DNA from: Roseimaritima ulvae
GTDB lineage: Bacteria; Planctomycetota; Planctomycetia; Pirellulales; Pirellulaceae
Assembly: GCF_008065135.1 (NCBI RefSeq)
Contig: NZ_CP042914.1
Coordinates: 3,699,404 to 3,763,403, forward strand
Direction of reading: 5' to 3'
Length of the DNA: 64,000 nucleotides
Below the pieces are notes generated by a model. It saw only the letters and a list, made by a program, of their open reading frames with translations, was not told where the DNA came from and did not search any database. Below are positions 9,923 through 35,131 of this stretch, piece after piece (within the stretch, counting starts at the first letter, position 1; each line of letters starts with the position of its first letter). Made by a program: the position numbers and the translations under genes.

Positions 9923-10429
9923 GTAGGAAGGTCCTTCTTTCGCTGTTCACGTGAGCGTGATCGGTTGGCAGATAGCAAAACCTACCCGCGCCCTAACAAC
10001 TGTCGGCTCGCAGCGGCGTTTTGCTGCAAGAAACGTGACAGCGCCGTACGAGCGGTACCGGCTGGCTCAAGTTGGCGAAACAAGTCCTCCTTTTCGGTGA
10101 CCGAATGTGTGCTGGTTGAGGCCCCTATAACGCCGGAACATCCGGTAAAGGCCTCAGCAAATTGTGTGAAAGTCTAACTCTTATTTCATGCCATCTGCCA
10201 TTAAAACCAGCAAAATTGGGGTTTCGTTACCGCAGCGGCAAACACAAGCCCGCTAGTGCCGCCTTAAGGGGGAACGGCAGCGGGCCGGCGAGGCTGCGGC
10301 TCGGCGTCGGCGAAATTTCGCCCGTGGATGTGTTTTTTCGCCCCACATGCAAGCAATCCAATCCGCTGGCATAATGTTCCCTTCCCGTTCCCCTGCTTCG
10401 CCTCATCAAACCCCCATTCGCAGATTCCC

Positions 10430-11491
10430 ATGCCAGTCACGTACAAAGATGCCGGTGTCGATTTGGATGTGTACGCCCAATCGATGGGGCGACTGCCGGC
10501 TCTGATGCATCGTACCTTCAGCCCACGCGTACTGCAAAGCGATGGGGGGTTCGCGGGGCTCTTTCGGCTCGATTTCGAGGGCAAGCTGTTCTCGCGGAAC
10601 TATCGCCAACCGATCCTGGTCAGCGGAACCGACGGGGTGGGCACGAAACTGAAAATTGCACAGGAAACCAGCCGCCACGACACGGTGGGCATCGATTTGG
10701 TCGCGATGTGCGTCAACGATCTGTTGTGTACCGGCGCCGAACCGCTGTTCTTCTTAGATTACGTGGCGATGGGGCGGGACGACCCGGATCGGCTGGAAAA
10801 AATCGTTCAGGGAATCAGCGACGGCTGCCTGCAAGCCGATAGCGCGTTGCTGGGCGGTGAGACGGCGATCATGCCCGACATGTACGGCAATGACGACTAC
10901 GATCTGGCCGGGTTTTCCGTCGGCGTGGTCGAACAAAGCCGCTTGATCGACGGCCGCCAAATCGCCGCCGGGGATACGGTCTTGGGCATCGCCAGCAGCG
11001 GCCTGCATTCCAACGGTTTCAGCCTGGTCCGCAAAATCATCAAAGACGCCGGTCTGACCTGGGACGACCAACCCGAAGCTCTCGGCGGCGAATCGATTGC
11101 TGACGCCACGCTGCGGCCAACCCGGATTTACGTCTCCGCCCTACGCGCCGTTCAGAGCCACTACCGCGTCAAACAAGTCCTGCACGGAATCGCTCACATC
11201 ACCGGCGGCGGATTGGCCGAAAATCTCGGACGCGTCATGCCGACCAACGTGGACGCGGTGATCGACCCAGGCAGCTGGAAGCCGGCGCCGGTGTTCAGCT
11301 GGTTGCAGGAACTGGGCGGCGTGGCGGCCGAGGAGATGGAACGCGTGTTCAATATGGGCATCGGAATGGTCTTGGTGGTCAGCAACTATTACGCCGCCAG
11401 TGTCGCCGAACGCGTCGCCGCGGCCGGATACGAGTGCACTCCGATCGGCACCATCGTCGAGGGCAGCGGCACCGTCCGCTACGAGGAATAA
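10430..11491 (+). CDS. purM: Phosphoribosylformylglycinamidine cyclo-ligase (AIR synthetase) PurM. The ORF track starts at 10328, but the [11 protein letters not shown] start at 10430 matches the canonical N-terminus.
   Basis: The sequence [13 protein letters not shown]... GGFAGLF ... [11 protein letters not shown] ... is diagnostic of PurM. Confidence 0.9.
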
Positions 11492-11507
11492 AAAGCCATC
11501 CTCCACC

Positions 11508-11573
11508 CGTAGCCGAACTCGCCAGAGTTTGGACGTTTCCCGGAGCCCCCAAAGCCTGGCGACTTCGGCTACC
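11508..11573. repeat. REP-B pair (one + copy, one - copy) downstream of purM
   Basis: The sequence is cgtagccgaactcgccagagtttggacg ... cctggcgacttcggctacc. Confidence 0.7.
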
Positions 11574-11607
11574 AGCGTGCCAGACGGGGAAAAAACAAAC
11601 GCGGCGG

Positions 11608-12612
11608 CTAACTTACTGCGTGCGGCAGCGGTCGTCCGTTCAGGCCGGCGATGATGTTGTTGGCGGCGATCATCGCCATCTGCTCGCGGCTATCCCGGCT
11701 GGCGCTGCCGATATGCGGCGCGATCACACATTGGGGCAGGCCGACCAAGGGGTGTTCGGGCGGCAGGGGCTCGGGCGTGGTCACATCCAATCCAGCGGCA
11801 AAGATCTTTTTCTCCGTCAGCGCCTTGAGTAGTGCCGGCTGGTCGATGACTTCGCCGCGAGCGGTATTCACCAGCACAACGTGGGAACGCATTTGAGCAA
11901 ACTGCGGTGCATCGAGCATGCCCCGCGTTTCGTCACTCAGCGGACAGTGCACGGAGATGAAATCGCTGTTTGCCAGCAGAGTATCCAAATCGACGTGCCG
12001 GCCCCCCACCTGCTGGTTCGCCTCGGGCTTGGGCGAACGGGCGGTGTACAGGACGTCCATCGACCAGCCGGCGTGCATGCGGCAGGCGACGGCCAGCCCG
12101 ATCCGGCCCATACCGATGATCCCCAGTGTTTTGCCCGTCAGATCGACACCGATCAGCCCCAACGGCTCCCAGGTTTTCCAGTCTCCGTGACGGACCTGAT
12201 CAATCGCCTCGGGCAACCGGCGGGCGGCGGCAAGCAGCAACGTCACAGCCAAATCCGCCGTGGCGTCGGTCAGCACATCGGGCGTATTGCCCACCGCCAC
12301 GCCCCGCTGCTGGGCGGCCGCGACGTCGATATTGTTAAAACCGACTGCATAATTGCAGACCACACGCAGCTGCGGGCCCACCTGGTCAAGCAGTTCGCCG
12401 TCGACGCGGTCGCTAAGCAGCGTCAGCAAACCCTGGCAACCTTCGGCGTGTCGTAGCAATTCGTCGCGGTTGGGAGGCATATCGCCAGGCCACACCTCCA
12501 CCTTGGCAACTTGACGCAGGCATTCCAAACCTTTTTCGGGGATCTGGCGGGTGACAAACACCCGCGGGCGCGATTGGGGACTCATAGTTCTGGATCTCTG
12601 AGCGGAAAACAA
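11608..12612 (-). CDS. D-isomer-specific 2-hydroxyacid dehydrogenase (glyoxylate/hydroxypyruvate reductase-like). The start is possibly Met-10 (MSPQSRPRVFV).
   Basis: It has a GIIGMGRIGLAVA NAD-binding motif and the catalytic R/E/H region (HIGSAS). Confidence 0.8.
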   Translation of the reverse strand: MFSAQRSRTMSPQSRPRVFVTRQIPEKGLECLRQVAKVEVWPGDMPPNRDELLRHAEGCQGLLTLLSDRVDGELLDQVGPQLRVVCNYAVGFNNIDVAAAQQRGVAVGNTPDVLTDATADLAVTLLLAAARRLPEAIDQVRHGDWKTWEPLGLIGVDLTGKTLGIIGMGRIGLAVACRMHAGWSMDVLYTARSPKPEANQQVGGRHVDLDTLLANSDFISVHCPLSDETRGMLDAPQFAQMRSHVVLVNTARGEVIDQPALLKALTEKKIFAAGLDVTTPEPLPPEHPLVGLPQCVIAPHIGSASRDSREQMAMIAANNIIAGLNGRPLPHAVS

Positions 12613-12720
12613 ATCTCGGCGAGGAAACGAAAAACGACAAAAAAACTGGACGATCGCACACCTGCACTACGTTTGCGCGGAGCAACTCGCCATAATAGAC
12701 TGGAGATCTTAGGAACTTAC

Positions 12721-14451
12721 ATGCTCACGGAACCCACCACCATGACCGCTCTCGCTTACTGTCCACTTTCCTCGCCACGATCCCTTCGATCGACTGCTAG
12801 GTTCGTTTTGTTAGCAATCGCAGCGTCGGTAATGATTTCGCTACCCACCACGGTGTGGGCCGAGGGAGAAGGGCAGGCCGACCTGGACGAAGCGATGGTC
12901 AAGCGGATCGATGCCAAGTCGGCCAGCGATCTGCAGCAGGTCAGCACCTTGCTCGAGTCCGCGCTGGCCAAAGGCCTGGACGACGAAAATCAAGCCTTCG
13001 CCAAAAAGATGCTCGGAGCGGTCTCGCTGCAGAAAGGCCGCGCCTACGCGGAACAGATCAAACGCACCGGCGCTCGTGGCTTCCGCGAACTCCGCCGCGA
13101 AGCGATCGAAGCTCTGGAAACGGCGGTCAAGCACGACCCCACGTTGGCCGAAGCCCATCTGCTGATCGCACGGCTGAACGTGCTGCCCGGCGGCGACCAA
13201 GAACGCGCTCGTAAAGCCGCCACGGCGGCGATCCAACAATTGGGGGACGACGATCGCCAACGCAGCGAAGCCCTGGTGCTGCGAGCTTTGTTGCAAACCG
13301 ATAACGACGCCCGCATGGAAGATTTTGACCGGGCCATCAAAGCCGACCCCGAAAGTGTTCCGGCGCATCAAGGCCGCGCGATGCTGCGAATGCAGACCGG
13401 CGACACCGAAGCGGCCCTGGAAGACATGAAGAAGTTGATGGAGCTGACGCCGGAAAATTCCGCCGTGGTTGCCGAAGCCGTACGTGCGTTGTTGCGTCTG
13501 GAACGGACCGAAGACGCCGAAAAATTGCTCAGCGATGCCCTCTCCGATCAGCCTCGCGGCGAACTGTATCGGCTGCGAGCGGTGATCTACCAATCGCAAG
13601 AGAAAAATGACAATGCCTTGGACGATCTGGCCAAAGCCCTGACACTGGACGAACGTGACTTCGCCGCGTTGTTAATGCGAGCCGAGATTCTGCTCGGTCG
13701 AGATGATGTCAAAGGCGCCCGCCGCGATGTTAACAAAGCCATGCAAATCGAACCCAACAGCGTGCAAGGCATCTTGATGCGAAGCATGCTCGCGTACGAA
13801 GAAGGACGCATGGCCGACGCCATTAACGACATGCAGCTGCTGGTCAACTCGGTCCCGGACAACGAAGGCTTCGCCCTGCAGTTGGCCAATTTTTACCAGC
13901 TGGACAAACGGCCTCGTAAAGCCATCGCGGTGATCTCCAAACTGTTGGCTCGCGATGCCGAAAACTGGCGCGCCCTGCGGCTCCGCGGCGACGCTCAATT
14001 AAGCACGGTCGAACACGCCAAGGCCATCGCCGATTACGAATCCGCCCTGGAAATCATCAACAAAGAAGAGGACCAGTCGGATTTGGCGATCAGTAAGTCG
14101 GGCATCCTTAACAACCTCGCCTGGGTCCTGGCCACCTCCACCGATCCTGAGCTCCGCGATGGCGACCGGGCGCTAAAGTACGGCATGGAGGCTTCCGAGT
14201 TGACCGAGTTTAAGGAAGCCCACATCCTCAGCACGCTGGCGGCCGCTTACGCCGAAACCGGGGATTTTGAGAAAGCCATCGAGTGGTCGACCAAAGCCGT
14301 CGAACTGGGCGAGCAAGAACAGAACGAGCAACTCGACCAGCTGAAGAAGGAATTGGAAAACTACAAGCAGAACAAACCTTGGCGTGAGGAACAGGCCGTC
14401 GAGGAAAACACCGTGCCGATCCTTTCGCCCGAAGACATCATCGACACTTGA
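12721..14451 (+). CDS. Secreted TPR-repeat protein. The ORF track starts at 12511 and overlaps the upstream gene. The MLTEPTT start followed by a signal-like segment is more plausible.
   Basis: It has multiple TPR-like 34-residue repeats (AxxxYxxA / ALxLxP patterns). Confidence 0.65.
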   Translation: MLTEPTTMTALAYCPLSSPRSLRSTARFVLLAIAASVMISLPTTVWAEGEGQADLDEAMVKRIDAKSASDLQQVSTLLESALAKGLDDENQAFAKKMLGAVSLQKGRAYAEQIKRTGARGFRELRREAIEALETAVKHDPTLAEAHLLIARLNVLPGGDQERARKAATAAIQQLGDDDRQRSEALVLRALLQTDNDARMEDFDRAIKADPESVPAHQGRAMLRMQTGDTEAALEDMKKLMELTPENSAVVAEAVRALLRLERTEDAEKLLSDALSDQPRGELYRLRAVIYQSQEKNDNALDDLAKALTLDERDFAALLMRAEILLGRDDVKGARRDVNKAMQIEPNSVQGILMRSMLAYEEGRMADAINDMQLLVNSVPDNEGFALQLANFYQLDKRPRKAIAVISKLLARDAENWRALRLRGDAQLSTVEHAKAIADYESALEIINKEEDQSDLAISKSGILNNLAWVLATSTDPELRDGDRALKYGMEASELTEFKEAHILSTLAAAYAETGDFEKAIEWSTKAVELGEQEQNEQLDQLKKELENYKQNKPWREEQAVEENTVPILSPEDIIDT

Positions 14452-23886: not shown

Positions 23887-23906
23887 AGTAGCATGGGCCC
23901 CTGGCC

Positions 23907-25437
23907 CTGCTGATTACCCAATTTTTAGTGAACGGATGATTTTGGAGGCCCGAAGGCTTGCCAGGCTAAGGCGAAGTCCATCATTCGGCGAGTTCCACGC
24001 CAGATCGTTTCCATTCCTGGTGGGCCGTCGTGTTTGCGTCCATTGTAGCCACCTAGCTGAGCAAGCACGGGGATGAATTGCGAGAGTTCGGGAGCTGATT
24101 TCGGCGGCTCCGATTCCTTAGCGACTTTCCAAACCGACTTCCATTCAGCGTCGCTGAATACAACATCGCATGGCAACTCAGGACACTCGCGTCCGAGGAA
24201 TGTGATAAACATGATCCGCCATGCAACAACTTTGTAAAACATCAACGCGCGAATCAGCCTGGCTTTGGTTTTCAGCTGGATGTCCTCAACGCGGCATCCC
24301 GATTTGAGTACTCGGAAGAACATTTCGACAGGCCACCGTGCGACGTAGTAGTCAACAATCCGCAATACATCTCGGTAATCGTCAATCGGAAGGGAGCTCA
24401 ATAGCAGCCAGTTCAGGTCGGTTCCATCCTGCGGCCCGTCGACCTCTTGAACGAGCACTACGCTGAGCGTCACTTCCGGAATAGCCGAGCGTCGTGCATG
24501 GGGCGGTTTTATCTTTGTGCGAATGGCACGGATTTCTAGAGTGGCCATTCGGGCGGCACGTTGGGCAGTGGCTGGCAACTCGACTTGCCGCGTTGTAACG
24601 AGATCTGTTTTTGCAACTTCGGATCGGATCTTCTTGTAGCTGTCGCCACCGGCTTCGTCGTCTTTTTCAGGCAAACACCGGACTTGCTTGCTGCGAATCA
24701 CGAAGTCGGCCGGATTATCGTGCTGTTCAGCTTCAACAAAGATGTCGTAGATGTCACCTTCGCGATCCGCTAAAGAAACAACTTGAGTCTCCGGGCACTG
24801 TGAGGCCAATTCACAGCATCGGCGATAGCCTTGAAGCCATCGAAAACTTTCCTTCTCTTCGATCGGATCACTCTTCCGTTGACTGCCCTTTCCTAGGCTG
24901 TCTTCACTACGATCAAAGAACTCCACATCCAGCACGCCCAGACAAAGCTTCTCGGGCGTAAAGGCTACAGAGCTATGGTCATACAATCCCCGTCGGTCTG
25001 CCATGTTTAGGCACTTCACATCGTCGGGGGCGTGACCGTTGAAGTCTAACTCCGTCGTGTCTTGGGCCACGCAAACCACCTTCTGGGACTTGATCCGCTT
25101 GATCGTCGCCCGACGGTGCGCAGCAAGAATTTCCTGGCTATCGGCCTTGGGGTTATCCAAGAACCGGTAAGCCCCTTTCGCAGCACACCATTTATCGCAA
25201 GCCGCATTAATGCTCGCTTGAGGATTGGCGAAGAGGGCCTGGAGAAGTTCTTTCGATCGATCGTTACGGCTTTTATGGCCGAAGTCGATGGTGTCAAATT
25301 CGTGCTCAATCGTGGCTGGTTCAATGGTCATCAATCGCGCTCCTATCGTGTAAAAATAGGTAACACGAGGCGCAAAAAGCGTGCCGAAATCGCGGTGTTT
25401 TTTTGCGATTTCAAAAAAAGAATTGGGTAATCAGCAG
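23907..25437 (-). mobile_element. Intact IS4-family insertion sequence (~1531 bp). It has 16-bp perfect terminal inverted repeats CTGCTGATTACCCAAT and is inserted into a REP-A copy with a ~10-bp target duplication (GCCCCTGGCC).
   Basis: IRL sits at 23907-23922 and IRR (reverse complement) at 25422-25437. The left flank is gtagcatgggcccctggcc and the right flank gcccctggcccgtgt, which together reconstruct one REP-A unit plus a duplicated segment. Confidence 0.8.
23925..25334 (-). CDS. IS4-family DDE transposase (469 aa, apparently intact)
   Basis: The C-terminal YYVARWPVEMFFRVLK gives the IS4-family Y-(2)-R-(3)-E-(6)-K signature. A DDE-type acidic residue context lies upstream. Confidence 0.8.
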   Translation of the reverse strand: MMTIEPATIEHEFDTIDFGHKSRNDRSKELLQALFANPQASINAACDKWCAAKGAYRFLDNPKADSQEILAAHRRATIKRIKSQKVVCVAQDTTELDFNGHAPDDVKCLNMADRRGLYDHSSVAFTPEKLCLGVLDVEFFDRSEDSLGKGSQRKSDPIEEKESFRWLQGYRRCCELASQCPETQVVSLADREGDIYDIFVEAEQHDNPADFVIRSKQVRCLPEKDDEAGGDSYKKIRSEVAKTDLVTTRQVELPATAQRAARMATLEIRAIRTKIKPPHARRSAIPEVTLSVVLVQEVDGPQDGTDLNWLLLSSLPIDDYRDVLRIVDYYVARWPVEMFFRVLKSGCRVEDIQLKTKARLIRALMFYKVVAWRIMFITFLGRECPELPCDVVFSDAEWKSVWKVAKESEPPKSAPELSQFIPVLAQLGGYNGRKHDGPPGMETIWRGTRRMMDFALAWQAFGPPKSSVH

Positions 25438-25575
25438 GCCCCTGGCCCGTGTAAAAAAGACGTCTCTCCTTCTCCAGAACACGGGCCGGGGACCCATGCT
25501 ACGGTTTCCAGAACACGGGCCGGGGACCCATGCTACGGCTTCCAGAACACGGGCCGGGGACCCATGCTACGGGGA
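25438..25575. repeat. REP-A remnant at the IS junction plus three tandem REP-A copies (ccagaacacgggccggggacccatgctacgg x3). The last GTAG supplies the TAG stop of the giant ATPase gene.
   Basis: Read directly. The spacers between copies (ttccagaa) are identical, so this is not a CRISPR array. Confidence 0.75.
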
Positions 25576-28500
25576 ATCGGAGGCGTCTTCTAGTTCATTG
25601 CGGATGCGATCGTAATCCGCCAGCGTGCTTTCAATCAGCTTTTTCAGGTCATCCAGCTGCCGGCCGTTTTCACCCGCTTCCAACATCAATGGCCGCATCC
25701 ATTCTTGCATCAGATGGAACTGGCCGCGGACCAAGTCCAGCATCACCCGCGGCACCTTGTGCTGTACGATCACATTCTGATCCGGTGGGTTGGATGCCTG
25801 GAATTCGCTGATCTGTTGCAGCTGCTTCGACGTTTTGTTGATGGCTTCGGTCAGTTGCTGTCCGGCGTTCGAAAAACTCTGCCGCAGGCCGTCGACGCGT
25901 TCATCCATTCGAACTTCGGCGGAATCGTCGTGCGCTGCCACCGCTCGCGCGATGACTTGTCGGATGGATTCCAGTCCGTCGCGCATCGAACCCAATTGAC
26001 GCATCAGCTGACCGGCCTGGTCGTCAGAATCCAGGCCCGCCATTTTGACACTTTCCACATAGGCGTACTTGATCGCTTCCCAACGCTCTTTCTCTTCCTT
26101 GGTCAGCAACCCATTCAGCTCTTTGAACTTCAGCACGTTGGATTCATTGTCGGTCGTCAACGTCTGAGCGTCTTGTTCGTAGTTGCCGATGATCAAAGCC
26201 TGCAATTCATCCTCGTTCATCACCGCCACCACGCGTTCTGCGATGCGATTCATATTGCGGTAGCTGCCCTGTAATTTAAATGGCGGTTCGGTGCGATAGG
26301 CATCGGCTTGGGCAGCGGAGCGAATGTATTGACGATTGACCTTCAACACACAATCGCGGACCTTCAACAGCTTCTTCAGAACTTCGAACATCTCCCGCAC
26401 TTGGTCGGCCGAGAAACTGCTTTCCATCTCCAGCCCGTCCAGCGAATTGCGTTCGGCGGCGTGAATCAGAGCACGGGCGTCGCTGGGCGAAGCGGAAGCC
26501 AAGGGAGCCAAGACGGTGTTGCTGGTCAGGCAGTTTTCCAAGTAGCTGATTTCGAAGGCGTCGCGTGATTCGCCAATGATCTCGCCCAAGTTGTACACGT
26601 CGGCACGGTTGGACAACATGTCGGGGATCTGGAACCGGGCGCCGCTTTCGGTATACGGATTACCGGCCATCACCACCGCGACACGACGGCCTCGCAGGTC
26701 AAACGTCCGTGTCCGTCCGTTACGAACACCTTCGATTTTCCGGGTCGCGTCGCACAGCGAAATAAACTTCTGCAGGAACTCGGGATGCGTGTGCTGGATG
26801 TCGTCCAAGTACAGCAACACGTTGTCGCCCATCTCCAACGCCAGATTTAATCGTTCGACTTCTTCTCGAGCCGCCGCGTTGGGAGCTTCGTCCGGATCGA
26901 GCGACGTGACGTTATGGCCGATCGCGGGACCGTTGATTTTCATGAATACCAATCCCAATCGATTGGCGATGTATTCCATCAACGTTGTTTTACCGTAACC
27001 GGGTGGACTGATCAGCAGCAACAAGCCCATGCGGTCGGTGCGTTTACCTTCGCCGGTAACGCCGATTTGTTTGGCGAGGTTATCGCCGATCAGCGGCAGG
27101 TAGACTTCATCCAATAGTTGATTGCGGACAAAGCTGGTCAACACCCGCGGGCGGAACTCTTCCAGCCGCATGTCGTCTCGAGCTTCGTCGACCAATCGCA
27201 GCTTGGTGGTTTGCAAACGCTCGTAGCGCGGCACTACTTCGCTGCGGTACCGTCCCACGCGTTCCAGCAGTTCGTGGTACTGGACCGTTAGTTGCCCTTT
27301 TTGAATCCGCGGGTGAGCTCCGGCCAGACCTTCAAGGCGAACGGCGATGTTGACGTCCTGAGCGACAAATTCCTGGTCATCCGCAAACGCGATCCGTATG
27401 GCCAATTCGTCGCGGTAGGCCTCCACCGGATCCAGCGCATCGGTCTGTGGATGAGCGGCCAAAAACGCGTCGGCCCAGTTGCGTCCCAACACAAACGCCT
27501 GCAGCGGATGATCCGCATTCGCTTCGATGGACTGTTCCAACAAGCGACGTCGATCGATGGCGGGCAAGCTGTCGTTGAAAGCGGTTAACAGGGCCGCGAC
27601 ACGCCCGCTGCAGGTAAGGTGATTGGCGGGATCGACCAATTGATCAAACAGGTACGCCGCAATTTCTTCGGCCCCGACTTGCGGGAACAGCTCGGTCCAA
27701 GACAGCGACGAGGCGTCCCGGGGCGTGTGTTCGGCGGTCGGATCGTTCAACAACCGCACCAATCGTTGACGGAATTCGCGAGCCGGTTGAGCGTTGGGAT
27801 AGGCGCGCGCCAGATTAGCGAAACCACCGATCCACTCGGTCAACTGCTCGCGGAGCTGCGGATCGAGCAACCGCAGCCACCACAGCCACGCGGCAGCGCG
27901 GACCGTGGGCCGATGACGCAGCAGGCCGATTTTGTTGTCGATATCAATCAGCGTTGTCAGGATCGCCAACGCGTCGTGATCATGAACGCCCTTGGCATAA
28001 CCTTCGGCAAAGCGCCCGCTGATTTGCTGCCGCAGCCAATTGTCATCCACGGCCGGACGAGCCTGTCGCTCAATCGCTCGCCACTGCTGAAACAAATCCA
28101 CGGCAAGGTATTCGGCTCGGTATAGTTCATTGTTTTCATTCGCCAAGTCCTGCGTCCACAAGTCCTCAGCGGCTTGCAAATCTTCATGCACCAGAGGTTC
28201 AAAAAACTGCGTGCCCGTCAGGTGCAAACAGATCTGTTGGTCGCGCAATACCGTGGTCAGATCCAGCTTTTGCGTGTTGACTGCAAACCGATGCCGCCCC
28301 AGCCGGATCGTATCGCCACCATCTTCGTACAGATCCTGGCGATCCTTCAACTGACGCAACGAATCTTCGCGGATCGTTTTCAGCCGGCTTTGGATATCTT
28401 CCACGCGGACGGCATCATCCAATTCCATCAGATTGGTGACGATGCCGCGGATCTTGTCGACCATCAAGTCGGCGGCGAAATAGGCCAAAATCTCATCCGC

Positions 28501-30840
28501 CGATTCCATGCTGCGGGCCCGTGATTCGATTCCCGTCAAGATGCGATCGGCCGCGTTGGCCAAGGATTCGGCGCGGCGATTCCGCTTTTCGACCAGCTGG
28601 ACTTTGCGGCTTTCAAAGGCGTTGTACAACTCTTCGCGGCGTTCGGTCAGTTGCTCGATGAACTCGTCAAATTCGGCGAACCGTCCTTCCAGTTCTTCCA
28701 GCTGGACCATTACTTTGGTCAGATACTGTTCACACTTTTCGGGCGTGTCACAGATATCCAAATAGCCAGCAACGGTTTGTTCCAGCAATTTCAGTTGCGA
28801 GGCGAATTCCGCTCGGCCTTCGCCGCTGGCCAATTCACTGGTGCGGGCTTTCAAACGGCTGCGGACGCGGTTCAGCGAGGCAAAAACGTCGCTGATCTGA
28901 TCGATGATCTGGGTGCGTTTGGTGGTGTCATCGATTTGCAGATTACTGACCGTTTCGGTCAACAGTTCCAATTGCCCCGAGGCTTCGTCGATATGTTCGT
29001 CCAGCTTTTTGGCATCCGCAACCGTAGCCACCGATTCGACCTGTTGCTCGGTATCGAGCACGCGTTGCCGGTAAGGTTGCAGGGCATCGTCTTGCAGTAG
29101 GAAATCCACGCAGCGACGGCTGACGCGTTCGCTGCGTTCGGCGATATCGGTCTCCAGTGCATCGATGCGTTCCCCATCGACGTACCGCAACTCCCGCAAA
29201 CCGATGGCGTGGCCGCGTTGGGTACGCAGCTGAGCCAGGGCATCGACAAAGGCGTCTATGTTGTCGAACCGCGAACGTTCGATCGACTTGATAAGCGTTT
29301 CCACGGCCTGTTCGACCGCGGATGTCTTTTCCTCGGTGTCACGGCGGACGCGGACCACACGTTCGAATTCTTCGATGGCTGCGTTTGCGGTATCACGGAT
29401 GGAACGCAGCGGTTCATCCAGACGCTGGGTTTCGGGTTTATCCAACCAGAAATAGCTGTCCAGGACATCGCCCGACTTCTTGGCCAAATCAACGTACAAG
29501 CCGTCGTAGCTGTCGTCCTTGTCGATCAACTGCATGATTTCGCTGCATTCGGCCATGCCGCGAACCAGTTCTTTGTTGCCGATTTTGAACAGCAGCGAGT
29601 CGGTGTTGCTGTGGGCCACGTAGTCGGGGCCGGTAAACGGCGTCTGCCATAATTGAATGGCGTGATGTTTCTGCGGCTGTTCCTGCGCCCGGAAGCAAAC
29701 CATCAGACCATCGTCGAAAAACGTCTGTCCGTTACAGATCAGCGGCGTATCGACCTCTTGGCGAATCAGGTTGTAACGCAGTTGGACGTAGGTGCCGTGG
29801 GCATGATTATAAAACAGGTACAGGAAGTCTTCGCCGTTGCTGGCCGCAATCGATCGCGCATAAACCATCTCCGACAGCCCATGGTCGAAGCGCTTAAAAT
29901 CCCCGGTTTGCAGATAGTAGCCGCCGGAAAAAATGATGCCGTGGTCATCGGGCAACAGGATGCAGGCGTGTTGGATATCATCCAGCCGCATCGCCTTTTG
30001 AATCTTGGCGTTAAACAGCAGGTAGCGAGCATCCCGTTCTTGATAGGGATGCATCTTCAGCAGGATCAGGTTTCCCAGTGTGGCCCAGTGGACTTCCGCG
30101 TCGTCCAGCGTCTGATCGGGGTTGTCGACCGGTTCGGCGTAGATGCCTTTCCCGGACGCCGTGTTATCCTCCACTTTGACCGTCAGGTCACCGCCCACCG
30201 TTTCCACGAACACGCGATCTTCAATGGAGATGTGCGGGTGTTCGCCATAGCGGTGTTGATCCCGCGTGGCTCGCTGCCACACGAATTCATGCTGCGAAGG
30301 GTAGACAACCTCGTGATCGCTGCGGTTGTCAATGTATTCAAAGCGGCTGCCCACACGCCGCCATTTAAAGGTCTTGATGTCCGACTCGGACTTGCCGACC
30401 TGGAACACCATATAGACAAACGGTCCGGCGGTGAAGAACTTTGCGAAAGTTGTGTTGCGATAGAATCGGTACAGTTCGTGAAAATCGCGTTCAAAGCGAT
30501 CGTCGTCGATCATCTCCTTCAGCGGGGCCGCGTGGAAGGTGCGATCTTTCAGGCAGTAAACGCCAAACACATCTTCCAGAGTGGTTTCGGTCTTCAAGCC
30601 GAACTGGACGTTGTAGCCGAACAGAAACTGGTTACCGATGGCGATCAAATCCCGCGGCACACAATTGTGCTCGGTCGTTATCCGCTCGGTGGCCAGCAGC
30701 TGTGTTTGGATATTGCCAAACGTCGCTGAGCGTTCCTCGTTGAGCGTTTCGATCCGGCTACGAAGCTTGCCCGCCGCATCACGCAAGCGGTTGCGAAGCA
30801 CCTCGTAGGTACCGGTTGTCATCGAAGTATCGGCAGTCAA
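25567..30840 (-). CDS. Giant (1757 aa) P-loop ATPase. The AAA+ core (Walker A LLLISPPGYGKTTLMEYIANRL, Walker B NVLLYLDDIQ) sits at ~residues 1115-1300. It is preceded by ~1100 aa including a long coiled-coil region and followed by ~450 aa of unknown function.
   Basis: Walker A and B motifs are read directly. The PPGxGKTT form resembles the RuvB/clamp-loader clade. No transmembrane segment is seen. It is the last gene of the YqiJ-like / flotillin operon. Confidence 0.7.
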   Translation of the reverse strand: MTADTSMTTGTYEVLRNRLRDAAGKLRSRIETLNEERSATFGNIQTQLLATERITTEHNCVPRDLIAIGNQFLFGYNVQFGLKTETTLEDVFGVYCLKDRTFHAAPLKEMIDDDRFERDFHELYRFYRNTTFAKFFTAGPFVYMVFQVGKSESDIKTFKWRRVGSRFEYIDNRSDHEVVYPSQHEFVWQRATRDQHRYGEHPHISIEDRVFVETVGGDLTVKVEDNTASGKGIYAEPVDNPDQTLDDAEVHWATLGNLILLKMHPYQERDARYLLFNAKIQKAMRLDDIQHACILLPDDHGIIFSGGYYLQTGDFKRFDHGLSEMVYARSIAASNGEDFLYLFYNHAHGTYVQLRYNLIRQEVDTPLICNGQTFFDDGLMVCFRAQEQPQKHHAIQLWQTPFTGPDYVAHSNTDSLLFKIGNKELVRGMAECSEIMQLIDKDDSYDGLYVDLAKKSGDVLDSYFWLDKPETQRLDEPLRSIRDTANAAIEEFERVVRVRRDTEEKTSAVEQAVETLIKSIERSRFDNIDAFVDALAQLRTQRGHAIGLRELRYVDGERIDALETDIAERSERVSRRCVDFLLQDDALQPYRQRVLDTEQQVESVATVADAKKLDEHIDEASGQLELLTETVSNLQIDDTTKRTQIIDQISDVFASLNRVRSRLKARTSELASGEGRAEFASQLKLLEQTVAGYLDICDTPEKCEQYLTKVMVQLEELEGRFAEFDEFIEQLTERREELYNAFESRKVQLVEKRNRRAESLANAADRILTGIESRARSMESADEILAYFAADLMVDKIRGIVTNLMELDDAVRVEDIQSRLKTIREDSLRQLKDRQDLYEDGGDTIRLGRHRFAVNTQKLDLTTVLRDQQICLHLTGTQFFEPLVHEDLQAAEDLWTQDLANENNELYRAEYLAVDLFQQWRAIERQARPAVDDNWLRQQISGRFAEGYAKGVHDHDALAILTTLIDIDNKIGLLRHRPTVRAAAWLWWLRLLDPQLREQLTEWIGGFANLARAYPNAQPAREFRQRLVRLLNDPTAEHTPRDASSLSWTELFPQVGAEEIAAYLFDQLVDPANHLTCSGRVAALLTAFNDSLPAIDRRRLLEQSIEANADHPLQAFVLGRNWADAFLAAHPQTDALDPVEAYRDELAIRIAFADDQEFVAQDVNIAVRLEGLAGAHPRIQKGQLTVQYHELLERVGRYRSEVVPRYERLQTTKLRLVDEARDDMRLEEFRPRVLTSFVRNQLLDEVYLPLIGDNLAKQIGVTGEGKRTDRMGLLLLISPPGYGKTTLMEYIANRLGLVFMKINGPAIGHNVTSLDPDEAPNAAAREEVERLNLALEMGDNVLLYLDDIQHTHPEFLQKFISLCDATRKIEGVRNGRTRTFDLRGRRVAVVMAGNPYTESGARFQIPDMLSNRADVYNLGEIIGESRDAFEISYLENCLTSNTVLAPLASASPSDARALIHAAERNSLDGLEMESSFSADQVREMFEVLKKLLKVRDCVLKVNRQYIRSAAQADAYRTEPPFKLQGSYRNMNRIAERVVAVMNEDELQALIIGNYEQDAQTLTTDNESNVLKFKELNGLLTKEEKERWEAIKYAYVESVKMAGLDSDDQAGQLMRQLGSMRDGLESIRQVIARAVAAHDDSAEVRMDERVDGLRQSFSNAGQQLTEAINKTSKQLQQISEFQASNPPDQNVIVQHKVPRVMLDLVRGQFHLMQEWMRPLMLEAGENGRQLDDLKKLIESTLADYDRIRNELEDASDSP

Positions 30841-30934
30841 CTTTATGCCTCACACTTGCACTCGGTGGCGACGCTCGCCGGAGCGTGGAAAACCCACCTT
30901 CTGGCGAAGGTAGCTACGGAAGGTATCAGGAGCG

Positions 30935-33067
30935 TTACGAAACCGTTCCGTTGGACTTGTCCGCCGAATTCTGCACCGTCAACCGACGCACCGGCTGATC
31001 GGCTACGCCGGCGGTCCCGGCCATGCCCAGCAAGGACGTCAGCTGTTGGCGAACGTCATCGGTTTCGGCCAGCCCCATCAGTTTGGCGATCAAGGCCGCG
31101 ATCGAGAGGTCTTTGACGTCGCCGGTATCCAGATTGAACTGCTGGGTCAGCGTCATCAGCTTGTCGCGGAAGTACTCCGGATTGCCGCTGAAGAACGTGT
31201 CTTTAACGTCGGTCGCGACGCGGCTGTTGTAGACAAAGCGATCGATCGCCTTGCCGCCCTTGACGGCCGAGGTGATCTGGTCGAAGAATTCGCCATCGCC
31301 GCCGACGATGTCGATACGGGCGGCACGCAGGGCATCGCCCACGACACCGGCCTGACTTTCGGCGATGCCACGCTGGGCATTGATGGCTGCGATTTCGACG
31401 TCCTTCTCTTTCTCGATCTTGATCTTGAACTCTTCGTGTTCTTTGCCCACGCCGTCCAGCTTCTTCATGGCGTCGGCCTTTTCGGTGATGCCCGTCGCTT
31501 CGCTGTGGTATTTCTCCAGCGAGACCTTGGCTTCGGCCAGTCCCTGTTTCTCCATCGCTTCGGCTTTGGCTTCGATGCCCTTGGCTTCGGCAACGGCTTT
31601 CTTCTCCAGTACGGCGGCTTCGGCCAAGCCTTCTTTCTGCAGCGCGTCCGCTTTGGCTTCCTGAACCTGAGCGTCGGCCAAGCCCGGGGCGGCAGTGGTC
31701 GCGGCGGAACCCTCGGCGATCATCTTTGCCGCAGCGGCGTCCTTTTCGGCGGCGTCGCGTTTGGCTTCGGCTTCCACGCGGATCTTTTCGGCGAACAGGT
31801 CGGCGGCTTCGCGTTCGGCTTGAGCGGCTTTGACCTGTTTGATCAGGTTTTCTTCGGCACTCATTTCGGCAGCGGTGACCTGGACTTTTTTCAGTCGTTC
31901 GGCCATGGCGATCTCTTCGGTGTCCTTGATCCGTTCCTGCTCTTCCACAACGGCTCGTTCGACGGCAACCCGTTCGCGAATGACTTCCTGGATATTACGT
32001 TTTTCGACTTCGATGGCCTTTTCTTTTTCGATGTCCGCAACGCCGACCAACCGCATGCGTTCGGTCATTTCCAGGTCACGGTCGCGGGTGACACGCTCCT
32101 GTTCGACGGCGTCGGTGCGTTCCTTGTTGCGTTGGGCCACAAGGATCTGACGCAATTTGTTTTCTTCGGCGATTCCCAATTCTTCTTCGGTGCGAATCCG
32201 GGCGCGAACCGACTCGAGTCGTTGTTCTTCTTCGACTTTGGCGGCCGAGGCGTGTTCGCGAGCTTTGATTTCGGCGATTTCGCGAGTCTGTTTTTCGACC
32301 GCTTCGACGCGCTGCCGTTCCAGTTCCAGAATCGTTTCTTCCGCTTCCACGTCCTGTTTCTTCAGTGTCTTTTCTTTGTCACGAGTGAACTGGTTTTCTT
32401 TGACCTTCTCGCTGGCCGTCAGTTCCGTGATCTTCTTGATGCCTTCGGCGTCCAAAATATTGTGAGGATTCAGCAGATCCAGCGACGTCTGTTCCAGGAA
32501 GTCGATGGCGGCGTCATCCAGTCGGTAACCGTTCAAGTCGGTACCGATAACTTTCAGAATTTCGCCTTTGAATTCTTCTCGTTGTTCGTACAGGTCGACG
32601 AAGTCGAATTGCTTGCCAACGGTTTTTAACGCTTCACTGAATTTGGCATCAAAGAGTTCACGCAGCGTTTCTAGTTGGCTGCAGCGTTTGGCGCCGATCG
32701 ATTGCGCGACTTCCTTAATCTCTTCAGGGGACTTATCGACGCGAATAAAAAAGGCCACGCGGATGTCGGCGCGGATGTTGTCGCGGCAGATCAGGCCTTC
32801 GGACCCCGTTCTCGCGATTTCAAAACTTTTCAACGTCAGGTCCATGTGTTCCTTGCGTTGCAGCAGAGGGATCACAAAGATGCCGCCCGCCGTGCAGGTT
32901 CTCAGCCCGCCGGCACCACTTCGCACGACCGCTTCATCGGGACCGACTTTGACGTAGTACTTGCTGGCGACAATCACCAACAGGAGCAACATCATCATGG
33001 CGATGCCAATCACGACTAGCCCCGTCTGGGTTAGCTCGGATAAACCAAACAATATGGGAAGCATCAT
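30935..33067 (-). CDS. Flotillin-like SPFH/band-7 protein (YqiK/FloT-like), with an N-terminal TM helix, SPFH core and ~400 aa of E/K/A-rich coiled coil
   Basis: The N-terminal hydrophobic helix is followed by the SPFH-like region (VVRSGAGG...IFVIPLLQR...DNIRADIRVAFFIRV). The long EA-rich heptad segments are typical of flotillins. Confidence 0.8.
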   Translation of the reverse strand: MMLPILFGLSELTQTGLVVIGIAMMMLLLLVIVASKYYVKVGPDEAVVRSGAGGLRTCTAGGIFVIPLLQRKEHMDLTLKSFEIARTGSEGLICRDNIRADIRVAFFIRVDKSPEEIKEVAQSIGAKRCSQLETLRELFDAKFSEALKTVGKQFDFVDLYEQREEFKGEILKVIGTDLNGYRLDDAAIDFLEQTSLDLLNPHNILDAEGIKKITELTASEKVKENQFTRDKEKTLKKQDVEAEETILELERQRVEAVEKQTREIAEIKAREHASAAKVEEEQRLESVRARIRTEEELGIAEENKLRQILVAQRNKERTDAVEQERVTRDRDLEMTERMRLVGVADIEKEKAIEVEKRNIQEVIRERVAVERAVVEEQERIKDTEEIAMAERLKKVQVTAAEMSAEENLIKQVKAAQAEREAADLFAEKIRVEAEAKRDAAEKDAAAAKMIAEGSAATTAAPGLADAQVQEAKADALQKEGLAEAAVLEKKAVAEAKGIEAKAEAMEKQGLAEAKVSLEKYHSEATGITEKADAMKKLDGVGKEHEEFKIKIEKEKDVEIAAINAQRGIAESQAGVVGDALRAARIDIVGGDGEFFDQITSAVKGGKAIDRFVYNSRVATDVKDTFFSGNPEYFRDKLMTLTQQFNLDTGDVKDLSIAALIAKLMGLAETDDVRQQLTSLLGMAGTAGVADQPVRRLTVQNSADKSNGTVS

Positions 33068-33876
33068 GAGGGCACCTCGGAGTCCGCTTGGGAGACGATG
33101 TAGATTCGAGTGTGAGGATCAAACCCAACGATTCGGGCTCGGTCGCCTTTCTTCATCAGGCATCCGTCCGTACGGATGTTCAACAGTAGGGGAGCCGCGT
33201 CGGTCTTAAAGCGTGCTTGACCGAATTTTTCGGTAGCCTGAGCCGTCCAGACGACACATTCTTGTCCCATTAGGTTGGCCGCGTTGTACTGAAGTTCGGG
33301 CGCGAAAATTTTGGTCATCGGTCCGGTTGCCAATTTGGTCAATCCGACGGCGACCACGAAGTTTCTGGCCGAGAGCCCAATACTAGTTAGAAGCGTAGGT
33401 TGGTATCGGGAAAAGTCAAAATGGTTCCAGAACAGCCACGACACGCACCAAAACAGCAGAGTAAACGTGCCCGCCCAGATGATGATGGGGATCTTGCCCA
33501 GGTTCAGCCAGCGGAGCGTCATCATTCCCGCGCCGCCCATTAGATCCGAGGCGTCGTGGCCCACGTCGACGTCCGCCGCCGTCTCGACATCGACGTCAAA
33601 ATCGGCATCCGCCGCGTCCGGCAATCCCGCGGCCACTTCGGGGGCATCCAGATCGGCGCCCAAGTCCCCGACGAGATCTCCGCCCAGATCGGCGTCGGGG
33701 CCGTCCAGATCCATGTCCACGGCACCGACCAGCGACAGCAGCAGATAAGCGATCAACAGCCCCATCAGAACCGACGCCGGCCACATGGGTCCAATGAATA
33801 CGGAATCTAGAAACGTTTCAACAGCGTTCCACACGGGTACGGCGACCTTGCAAACGAGGACTTGGAGAGTTGCCAA
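33064..33876 (-). CDS. YqiJ/NfeD-like membrane protein (DUF1449-like: TM helices, acidic linker, C-terminal OB-fold-like beta domain). It has a 4-nt ATGA overlap with the flotillin gene.
   Basis: The gene order and overlap copy E. coli yqiJ-yqiK. It has 3-4 TM segments and a C-terminal region (VVWTAQATEKFGQARFKTD...RARIVGFDPHTRIYIV) consistent with an NfeD-type OB fold. Confidence 0.6.
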   Translation of the reverse strand: MATLQVLVCKVAVPVWNAVETFLDSVFIGPMWPASVLMGLLIAYLLLSLVGAVDMDLDGPDADLGGDLVGDLGADLDAPEVAAGLPDAADADFDVDVETAADVDVGHDASDLMGGAGMMTLRWLNLGKIPIIIWAGTFTLLFWCVSWLFWNHFDFSRYQPTLLTSIGLSARNFVVAVGLTKLATGPMTKIFAPELQYNAANLMGQECVVWTAQATEKFGQARFKTDAAPLLLNIRTDGCLMKKGDRARIVGFDPHTRIYIVSQADSEVPS

Positions 33877-34006: not shown

Positions 34007-34096
34007 CTGCACTATCGGTCTGCCGGGTGTGTGATATTCTGCATCCTCGTTTTATCCGTTTTTAGCGCTCCGACGAGCGAAGCTGCGAGAACCGCC

Positions 34097-34591
34097 ATGA
34101 AAATCACCTGGAAAGAACTGACGTTAAATCCCGACGACATGGATTTTGACGAACTGCTGAGCGATTGGCGGTGGTTGGTGCCCGAGTCGATGGTGCCGAT
34201 CGTGGTCACCGCCCTGGGCGACCTGTTCCTCCAGGACGACGACAACCGCGTGCATTGGTTGGACACTGGAGCGGGAACGCTGGAGCAGGTGGCGTCCAGT
34301 TTGCCGGAATTCGAACAGAAGATCGTCCAGCCCGAAAATGCGGATCGCTGGTTCCTGCCCCAGCTGATCGGCGACCTGATCGACGATGAAAAACGCTTGG
34401 GACCCGGACAATGCTACAGCTGGGACGTGCCCCCGGGACTGAGCGGTGAAGTCTGCGTCGACAACGTCGAACCCAAAGACATCCGCGTGCATTTCTCGCT
34501 GTTCGGTCAGATTTTTCAGCAAACCAAAGATCTGCCCGAAGGCACGCCGATCACCGAGATCGTGATCGAAGACGACGAGCCCTCAGAGTAG
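34097..34591 (+). CDS. DUF1851 / Tdi1-like (SMI1-KNR4-related) immunity-type protein. The ORF track starts at 34031, but the MKITWKEL start is preferred.
   Basis: The pattern ...VVTALGDLFLQDDDNRVHWLDTGAGTLEQVASSLPEFEQ... matches the GDlfl..dG.v.flD...G.le.ia.sfeeF core I associate with DUF1851 (C-terminal domain of T6SS immunity Tdi1). Confidence 0.5.
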   Translation: MKITWKELTLNPDDMDFDELLSDWRWLVPESMVPIVVTALGDLFLQDDDNRVHWLDTGAGTLEQVASSLPEFEQKIVQPENADRWFLPQLIGDLIDDEKRLGPGQCYSWDVPPGLSGEVCVDNVEPKDIRVHFSLFGQIFQQTKDLPEGTPITEIVIEDDEPSE

Positions 34592-34959: not shown

Positions 34960-35131
34960 TTGCCACGGATTCAATCTTCTGTCCTCCATCCCTCTGTCGA
35001 ATCCCGTCCTCCTGGTTTTTGACCTTCTGCTGGGCGATTGGCGGTTGGTCATACCGAAAAATTGCCCGAGGGTACGCCCAATACCGGTGTCGTGATTGAA
35101 CACAGCGAGCGCTCGGAGTAGGTTGTCCCCG
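34960..35131 (+). pseudogene. Decayed duplicate of the 3' end of the DUF1851-like gene, plus a repeated upstream block
   Basis: 35040-35131 (ggtcataccgaaaaattgcccgagggtacgcccaataccggtgtcgtgattgaacacagcgagcgctcggagtag) aligns with 34517-34591 (gatttttcagcaaaccaaagatctgcccgaaggcacgccgatcaccgagatcgtgatcgaagacgacgagccctcagagtag). 34962-35001 repeats 34613-34652. Confidence 0.55.

Follow-up and report, generated by a model that had tools for sequence, protein, structure and literature searches.

A giant DUF3686-AAA+ ATPase encoded with flotillin and YqiJ-like proteins in Roseimaritima ulvae and other bacteria

A stretch of 64,000 nucleotides of Roseimaritima ulvae DNA (contig NZ_CP042914.1, forward-strand positions 3,699,404 to 3,763,403; hereafter the window) was found to contain three collinear minus-strand open reading frames (ORFs), which encode a YqiJ/YuaF-like membrane protein, a divergent flotillin and a soluble protein of 1757 aa. 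The soluble protein is a member of the DUF3686-AAA+ family (PF12458), to which it is homologous in full length and collinearly. The locus is another copy of a module that has been catalogued and is mechanistically uncharacterised. We propose, with moderate confidence, that the ATPase uses ATP to remodel flotillin (and PspA) assemblies during envelope stress, and that the locus is an abbreviated module of the phage shock protein (PSP) network.

The three genes and their junctions

A preliminary description, made from the sequence alone, had placed three collinear minus-strand genes at 25567-33876, and the ORF list agreed with these coordinates. The features of the locus, with the evidence for each in brackets, are as follows.

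33064..33834, minus strand: gene of a YqiJ/YuaF-like (short NfeD-type) inner-membrane protein (ORF, hydropathy, alignment with 15 orthologues, position upstream of the flotillin gene)
30935..33067, minus strand: gene of a divergent flotillin/SPFH protein, 710 aa (ORF, FloT match, names of homologues, linkage)
30841..30934, minus strand: spacer between the flotillin and ATPase genes, 94 nt (sequence, promoter and terminator scan, orthologous spacers)
25567..30840, minus strand: gene of the giant soluble ATPase, 1757 aa, TTG start (DUF3686, DUF7902 and AAA+)

The YqiJ-like and flotillin genes overlapped, stop to start, by 4 nt (33064-33067), as described previously, but the second junction was a gap of 94 nt (30841-30934) and not of 95 bp. 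Spacers in the orthologous loci were of similar size. Simple scans of the coding (minus) strand of the 94-nt spacer found nothing resembling a promoter or a terminator; in a planctomycete, sigma-70 and terminator scans of this kind carry no information.

The longest ORF of the small gene, counted from the first TTG, spanned 33064..33876 (270 aa). Alignment with the Roseimaritima and Stieleria orthologues indicated that the start is most likely the GTG at 33834, giving a product of 256 aa. For the ATPase gene, a start at TTG 30840 was backed by the N-termini of homologues (MTAETTM.., MTVDQSM..). In hydropathy scans, two hydrophobic stretches fell inside the likely 256-aa product, one N-terminal transmembrane (TM) or hydrophobic segment was seen in the flotillin-like protein (residues 5-42), and no hydrophobic segment was seen in the ATPase.

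Conserved linkage of the three genes

To survey the gene neighbourhoods, as the preliminary description had advised, the ORFs of 82 loci (80 from a genome scan, taken as the best tblastn matches, and two from exact look-ups) were searched with the window proteins. Among the 61 loci with at least 3.2 kb of upstream sequence, the gene immediately preceding that of the ATPase was a co-directional flotillin homologue in 58 (phmmer E 1e-130 to 0), and a YqiJ-like gene, again co-directional, lay upstream of the flotillin gene in 54. All-versus-all clustering of the neighbouring ORFs yielded only three families conserved across loci (81, 63 and 53 loci); the next family was present in at most 18. With a flotillin gene upstream in 58 of the 61 loci, chance adjacency of the three genes is excluded. 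The view that they form one unit, with the ATPase tied to a flotillin/NfeD-type scaffold, was thus borne out by conserved linkage.

The surveyed loci came from Planctomycetota, Verrucomicrobiota, Kiritimatiellota, Bacteroidota, Desulfobacterota and Clostridia. In a plasmid collection sampled via the ATPase alone, the same order (small protein, flotillin/SPFH, ATPase) was found in Streptomyces, Deinococcus and the Pseudomonas fluorescens plasmid pQBR103. The three-gene order was kept in nine phyla and the flanking genes varied; the flanks of the window differed from those in Roseimaritima and Stieleria, even between genera of Pirellulaceae.

The ATPase was 63-89% identical to its best matches, of which all the named ones were Planctomycetota, mostly Pirellulaceae. 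Identity was 77-89% in Roseimaritima, 63-71% in Stieleria, Rhodopirellula, Novipirellula and Rubripirellula, and 31-49% across phyla. The flotillin was more conserved across phyla, at 49-62%. A search against one representative per 50%-identity cluster gave 1398 clusters at E <=1e-3 and 436 at E <=1e-30, and an architecture of 1600-1900 aa was held down to approximately 28% identity. Named members included Vibrio and Streptacidiphilus, and at least 579 of the species genomes scanned had a relative of the ATPase.

The clpB gene was considered as a functional partner, and genes inside the Bacteroidota operons as a fourth component; both were rejected. The clpB gene adjoins the ATPase gene only in the window and in the closest relative, and the genes found between the flotillin and ATPase genes in Bacteroidota were not conserved between loci. 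The latter genes occupied 500-2400 bp (L022, L033, L044, L080 and other loci) and were small and unrelated, including lipoprotein-like ORFs, small membrane proteins and other unidentified ORFs that varied by locus. This gap seems to tolerate or attract insertions in Bacteroidota. In a Rubripirellula metagenome-assembled genome (MAG; L005), the ATPase homologue was split into two ORFs (7926-10256 and 10578-13241), which reflects either an assembly frameshift or stop, or a pseudogene.

PspA-bearing forms and the previous description of the module

In 17 Bacteroidota loci, a PspA/IM30 gene (PF04012, E 2.5e-40) lay upstream of the trio on the same strand, and 16 of them also had a CesT_Tir_1 gene (PF22550, E 1e-56) and a divergent helix-turn-helix (HTH) regulator. 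PspA was likewise upstream of the trio in eight Pseudomonas-like loci, three of which had a PLD-family gene downstream of the ATPase gene. The bare three-gene form was found in Planctomycetota, Verrucomicrobiota, Kiritimatiellota, Desulfobacterota and Clostridia.

The system had been taken as undescribed. Ravi et al. (2024, mSystems 9:e00847-23, PMC11237479; preprint 2020), however, reported an operon joining CesT/Tir-PspA with three further genes, and noted that abbreviated operons lacking PspA are widespread; the P. aeruginosa bacABCDEF operon (below) also includes a member of the family. The three core genes and their order are the same as in the window, and the ATPase is written there as 'Betapropeller+Coiled-coil+AAA-ATPase'. 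An example operon in their table, that of Dokdonia donghaensis (ANH61663.1), matched the Bacteroidota form reconstructed here gene for gene. That description is purely computational and gives no quantification, AAA+ fold assignment or mechanism (PMC11237479).

When the window was compared with this module, the ATPase gene was found to be immediately preceded, on its own strand, by the flotillin and YqiJ/YuaF genes. The ATPase showed the architecture of propeller, coiled coil and C-terminal AAA+ module, from Pfam, structure models and Foldseek matches at low TM-scores. The CesT/Tir-PspA dyad, a property of the full form only, was lacking, and neither a CesT gene nor an HTH regulator was found in the operon or elsewhere in the 64 kb. 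The window thus matches the abbreviated form, differing from the full form by the absence of CesT, PspA and the HTH regulator.

On the P. fluorescens SBW25 megaplasmid pQBR103 (L112, 86507-97641), the trio came right after genes for DUF2491, DUF350, DUF1190 and glutathionylspermidine synthase. This is the polyamine-linked gene set that has been tied to other PspA operons (PMC11237479).

The Pseudomonas aeruginosa counterpart

The 'biofilm-associated cluster' bacABCDEF (PA3732-PA3727) of P. aeruginosa is a single transcript in which reverse transcription PCR (RT-PCR) links bacA to bacF; a sigma-54 promoter was predicted, and all products of the cluster were increased 6-13-fold in a bacA mutant (PMC10948618). 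PA3728-PA3732 were reported to be upregulated in all samples of phage-infected P. aeruginosa (PMC12041424). Co-transcription, promoter prediction and induction are taken from these two papers. The former does not state the identity of BacE (PMC10948618).

P. aeruginosa contigs were recovered from metagenomes with the published primers, and four of them (L087, L089, L093 and L101) matched several primers exactly. On L087, the flotillin gene was followed by an ORF of 1746 aa that aligned with the window ATPase at 42% identity (residues 10-1683) and contained DUF3686 (E 2e-205), DUF7902 and AAA. The distance from the forward primer to a near-match of the reverse primer was 557 bp, equal to the published amplicon. 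The gene after the ATPase gene encoded a PLD-like protein of 230 aa, BacF. By these sequence comparisons, P. aeruginosa BacE (PA3728/PA14_16190) is assigned to the family of the window ATPase.

The YqiJ-like protein has its counterpart in BacC, the flotillin in BacD and the giant ATPase in BacE. The Pseudomonas operon differs from that in the window by the additional BacA (CesT-like), BacB (PspA) and BacF (PLD-like) and by its predicted sigma-54 promoter. It is the only member operon with measured co-transcription and regulation (PMC10948618). Co-transcription, which the preliminary description had proposed as a check, is therefore positive for a homologous operon by published RT-PCR. The published phenotypes (biofilm, rhamnolipid and virulence) come from bacA and bacB mutants, not from bacE.

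Two properties of the published primers were observed in passing. The forward primer worked in the metagenome scan, and the reverse primer PA14_16180/90_R (GCGATGCAGTTGTTTTTCGGT) gave no match there; it was mismatched to L087 (reverse-complement coordinates 1614-1636), where the site reads GCGATGCAGTTGTTCTCGGT (...CCGAGAACAACTGCATCGC). The 16190/16200 primer pair lay 176 bp apart on L087, versus 501 bp in the table of the paper (PMC10948618).

Domain architecture and AAA+ class of the giant ATPase

Pfam detected DUF3686 (PF12458) at residues 26-464 (E 5e-189, 628.9 bits versus a cut-off of 25), DUF7902 at residues 585-668 (E 1e-29) and AAA from residue 1274. The AAA+ core is therefore not the sole recognisable module, as had been thought from inspection of the sequence. 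Two confident AlphaFold2 (AF2) models were built from a 63-sequence alignment, covering residues 1-700 (mean confidence by predicted local distance difference test, pLDDT, 89.6) and residues 701-1757 (pLDDT 86.4). The regions below were delineated from the models, Pfam matches, alignments and conservation profiles.

Residues 2-41: N-terminal helix ahead of the propeller-like domain (AF2 model)
29644..30702, minus strand: beta-rich, beta-propeller-like domain, residues 47-399, approximately 27 strands, the core of Pfam DUF3686
28330..29595, minus strand: long helices and coiled coil including DUF7902, residues 416-837 (Pfam, AF2 models)
27151..28323, minus strand: small beta unit (approximately 844-882) followed by a helical domain, residues 840-1230 (model, alignment, conservation profile)
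26551..27123, minus strand: AAA+ alpha/beta core, residues 1240-1430 (approximately 1270-1420 in the model), the most conserved part of the ATPase
26041..26550, minus strand: lid and conserved C-terminal helical region, residues 1431-1600, with the invariant P-F-x-L-Q-G-S-Y-R-x-M at 1519-1530 (model, alignment, conservation)
25570..26040, minus strand: lineage-specific helical tail, residues 1601-1757 (conservation 0.10-0.23, pLDDT 41-76)

A Foldseek search of the PDB with the N-terminal model retrieved beta-propellers (Ski8, Kelch ESP, CyRPA, clathrin terminal domain, paraoxonase and prolyl oligopeptidase). The top rows had E of about 2e-5 and probabilities of about 1.0, at TM-scores of 0.35 or less. 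We interpreted the N-terminal domain, as modeled, to be of the propeller class and far from any solved example.

Residues G848, E902, R908, L912, G951, H953 and D956 were invariant in the region 840-1230, of which the part from 1000 to 1200 was poorly conserved. The C-terminal tail was absent or different outside Planctomycetota, and the matches from other phyla ended near residue 1630.

The AAA+ core had been placed at residues ~1115-1300. It was located instead at ~1240-1430, with the Walker A motif PPGYGKT at 1279-1285 and the Walker B motif LYLDDIQH at 1343-1350. The strands of Walker B and sensor-1 were separated by a beta-hairpin (1368-1381); sensor-1 (AGNPY, 1392-1396) and N1411-R1412 followed. 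These motifs were invariant across 30 diverse members.

The core had also been likened to RuvB and clamp loaders. The RuvB_N match (E 2.4e-5) was below threshold, and in the model the core was closest by fold to MoxR, dynein and midasin, not to RuvB or clamp loaders. MoxR-family proteins (CbbQ, NorQ and RavA) and dynein/midasin modules were the best structural matches, including the beta-hairpin between Walker B and sensor-1. The ATPase differs from this group in carrying a single AAA+ module in a chain of 1757 aa together with a propeller-like head and a coiled coil, and also in its lack of a VWA partner and its Asp-Asp Walker B. Membership in MoxR/AAA_5 was considered and rejected, since AAA_5 similarity was below the Pfam threshold and no VWA partner was conserved.

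Asp-Glu is usual in Walker B, but in each of the 30 diverse members this motif (window 26791-26814) read Asp-Asp and then Gln-His. We take it to resemble the Walker B motifs of the DnaA/DnaC type, despite the MoxR/dynein-like fold. Searched against PDB sequences, the single ATPase sequence gave only weak matches of the p97 type in the Walker A region, and the 30-sequence profile gave nothing at E 1e-3.

Identity of the YqiJ-like protein and the flotillin

In the small protein, an Asp-rich acidic linker joined an N-terminal TM segment to a further TM region, which was followed by a C-terminal beta domain with a GQA..T..APLLLNVRT motif. Alignment of the family (15 orthologues) showed the TM regions, acidic linker and conserved C-terminal beta region expected of short NfeD-type proteins. 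YqiJ_N matched the window protein below threshold (E 0.0035-0.0057), and matched 8 of 16 family members (best E 1.5e-5); NfeD matched one of the 16. No match was found among PDB sequences. The topology, the C-terminal beta region and the position beside the flotillin gene fit the YqiJ/YuaF type.

The flotillin was composed of an N-terminal TM segment, a band-7-like domain, a Glu/Ala-rich coiled coil of approximately 400 aa and a conserved C-terminal region. The NCBIfam model FloT matched residues 20-319 at E 1.9e-6, far below its cut-off. Band_7 matched 2 of 14 orthologues (best E 2.1e-6). Many homologues of about 80% identity had precomputed PF01145 (Band_7) matches, and several sources name them flotillin or YqiK. 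A search of PDB sequences with the single sequence gave nothing useful. From the sequence comparisons, the direct evidence for the label 'flotillin' is thin for the window protein itself; the architecture expected of a flotillin (N-terminal anchor, long coiled coil and an operon shared with an NfeD-type gene) was present. The preliminary description had named the two proteins DUF1449/NfeD-like and SPFH/flotillin; the window proteins themselves were sub-threshold or without a Pfam match.

Most members of this flotillin subfamily fail Pfam Band_7, yet they are 49-62% identical from Planctomycetota to Clostridia. Surveys of SPFH proteins based on domains would probably miss them.

The characterised pairs yqiJK of Escherichia coli and yuaF-floT of Bacillus subtilis also have a small NfeD-type gene directly upstream of the flotillin gene, often with overlapping stop and start. 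They differ from the window in having no ATPase gene, and the window flotillin is longer (710 aa) and divergent from theirs.

The insertion sequence and the neighbouring genes

The operon had been considered accessory rather than core, from its position beside an insertion sequence (IS) and a supposed repetitive extragenic palindromic (REP) array. The IS4 element was real. It spanned approximately 23907-25436, was bounded by terminal inverted repeats (CTGCTGATTACCCAATT...), was flanked by a 9-10 bp direct repeat, GCCCCTGGC(C), as the target duplication, and encoded an IS4/Tn5-type transposase of 469 aa (23925..25334) with Tn5 dimerisation, DNA-binding and DDE domains. The array was rejected as REP, because it is one tandem repeat whose unit occurs nowhere else in the window and is not dispersed.

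25473..25572, no strand assigned: 34-bp x 2.9 tandem repeat, with its last copy extending over the end of the ATPase gene (final codon and stop)

Each copy of the repeat was complementary to 23888-23907 and to 25437-25452. Across the IS, immediately behind the stop codon of clpB, the sequence GTAGCATGGGCCCCTGGCCC (23888-23907) forms the left arm of a hairpin, of which the tandemly triplicated unit forms the right arm. This hairpin, which the IS now divides, is probably the 3' terminator of both the ATPase gene and the convergent clpB. Roseimaritima MAG L003, whose ATPase is 89% identical, is the closest genome available; there clpB lies convergent 138 bp after the ATPase gene, with no IS between them. 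The IS thus inserted recently, into a terminator-like hairpin between genes, and has no bearing on whether the operon is accessory.

Most neighbours in the window were housekeeping genes. They encoded ClpB, an NAD-specific glutamate dehydrogenase, a prephenate dehydratase, a methyltransferase, a CDP-alcohol phosphatidyltransferase, a flavoprotein of the succinate-dehydrogenase/fumarate-reductase FAD type (possibly L-aspartate oxidase) and a beta-helix protein. The exception was a gene at 34031-34591 (plus strand), divergent and upstream of the operon, for a protein of 186 aa with the C-terminal domain of the type VI secretion immunity protein Tdi1 (E 1e-9). Fragments of 46-48 nt from this gene and its 3' flank (also 34960-35045) reappeared at about 80% identity 350-870 bp farther along, a pattern suggestive of a decayed duplication.

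Only 13 of 72,556 plasmid records contained a homologue of the ATPase, and these were mostly larger than 380 kb, being megaplasmids or mislabelled chromosomes. Together with the identity of the best matches and the IS-free arrangement in the closest genome, this spoke against the accessory view. Slow evolution and the high identity among the best matches fit a housekeeping or stress function.

Proposed function and alternatives

Among the roles suggested for the operon at the outset, one in membrane stress was the best supported, as PspA precedes the trio in the 17 Bacteroidota loci and in Pseudomonas. In the proposed scheme, the YqiJ-like protein and the flotillin would form a scaffold of the SPFH/NfeD type at the inner membrane, on its cytoplasmic side. 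The soluble ATPase may dock on this scaffold through its propeller-like head and long coiled coil and oligomerise through its MoxR/dynein-type module; ATP would then drive remodelling of the flotillin assembly (its formation, its disassembly or the extraction of clients). In genomes that encode PspA, within the operon or at another site, PspA polymers may be remodelled as well during membrane stress. The gene order, the linkage across phyla, the domain content, the AAA+ fold class and the membership of BacE were established by this analysis; the docking, oligomeric state, substrate and stress signal are inferred.

An SPFH membrane scaffold coupled to an AAA+ machine has precedents in HflK/C with FtsH and in prohibitin with the m-AAA protease. 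FtsH differs from the window protein in being a membrane-anchored AAA+ protease of the classic clade, whereas the window ATPase is soluble, has no protease domain and is closer to MoxR and dynein. A further likeness is to Vps4 and ESCRT-III. The occurrence of an AAA+ protein in an operon with PspA, a member of the ESCRT-III superfamily, suggests an ATPase that remodels a membrane-bound polymer.

Several observations weigh against this proposal. The ATPase itself has been addressed by no experiment in any organism. No PspA gene was found in the 64 kb by tblastn, and the link of the window to PspA is by operon homology only. The window flotillin was below the Band_7 threshold and matched nothing in Pfam even at E 10, and its family profile found no solved SPFH chain among PDB sequences. 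In an alignment by eye, the ATPase had no aromatic residue at the position of pore-loop 1 of classic AAA proteins; with the Asp-Asp Walker B, this means that classical substrate threading is not indicated. As best matches, the genome loci of the survey were biased to closer relatives, and 3 of the 61 loci (L031, L032 and L049) had neither a flotillin nor a YqiJ-like neighbour. These three were from Desulfobacteraceae, Cytophagaceae and Bacteroidia, and neither partner gene was present within 8 kb upstream of the ATPase gene.

A more specific form of the remodelling proposal is tentative, and we hold it as a possibility rather than an expectation. The ATPase could be a dedicated assembly and disassembly motor of a flotillin-NfeD cage, with the propeller gripping the flotillin cap or PspA and a MoxR/dynein-type ring pulling via the coiled coil.

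A different role would be that of a MoxR-type maturation chaperone for one client. From the flotillin platform, the ATPase would then assemble a single membrane complex or load it with a cofactor, in the manner of CbbQ, NorQ and RavA, and would not serve membrane stress in general. This is unlikely. Only the flotillin and YqiJ-like families are conserved nearby, without a VWA/MIDAS partner gene or a candidate client gene, and the repeated linkage with PspA and CesT points to membrane stress. Defence against phages or mobile genetic elements, suggested in the preliminary description, appears still less probable. The flotillin/YqiJ pair would in that case sense perturbation of the membrane by a phage. 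An abortive or protective response would be carried out by the ATPase, joined in Proteobacteria by a PLD effector. The induction of PA3728-PA3732 by phage, the PLD-family gene after the ATPase gene in Pseudomonas, the copy on megaplasmid pQBR103 and the Tdi1-like immunity gene adjoining the operon in the window are all in agreement with it. Phage induction, however, is expected anyway of a general envelope-stress regulon of the Psp type and so does not discriminate between the two. The sole match in PADLOC-DB 2.0 was a marginal one to mad8 (E 0.0021) on the AAA+ core, with none for the other two proteins, and the operon in the window is flanked by housekeeping rather than defence genes. Slow evolution (the identities across phyla given above, and those of 63-89% for the ATPase in its best matches) and the few, mostly large, plasmid records also argue against defence.

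The remaining alternative follows from database names such as 'DNA repair ATPase' and 'ATPase involved in DNA repair', namely that the protein acts in DNA repair and is encoded beside membrane proteins by chance. The weak RuvB_N matches (below the Pfam threshold) are consistent with such a role, but the name is the Pfam description of DUF3686 propagated by annotation pipelines, and no paper containing DUF3686 or PF12458 was present in the literature searched. A domain search of the ATPase found no DNA-binding, nuclease or helicase domain. The neighbourhood data already contradict this alternative, since flotillin linkage at the observed frequency cannot be chance, and we consider it barely credible.

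Significance

The name 'DNA repair ATPase' rests on nothing found in this analysis. What the analysis adds to the catalogued module is a tractable and partly studied member (bacE/PA3728), the MoxR/dynein-like fold assignment with an Asp-Asp Walker B, and the linkage numbers. If the tentative motor model is true, the ATPase would make a 'flotillin machine' of bacteria, similar to what Vps4 is for ESCRT-III, and flotillin scaffolds in at least nine bacterial phyla would be actively remodelled, not passive platforms. Bacterial flotillins and NfeD proteins are widespread, and their mechanical role is debated. The ATPase, very large and very conserved, is encoded almost always directly after one flotillin subfamily, with PspA in the same operon in two phyla. 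This makes it the clearest starting point for finding out whether ATP drives active remodelling of flotillin and PspA assemblies.

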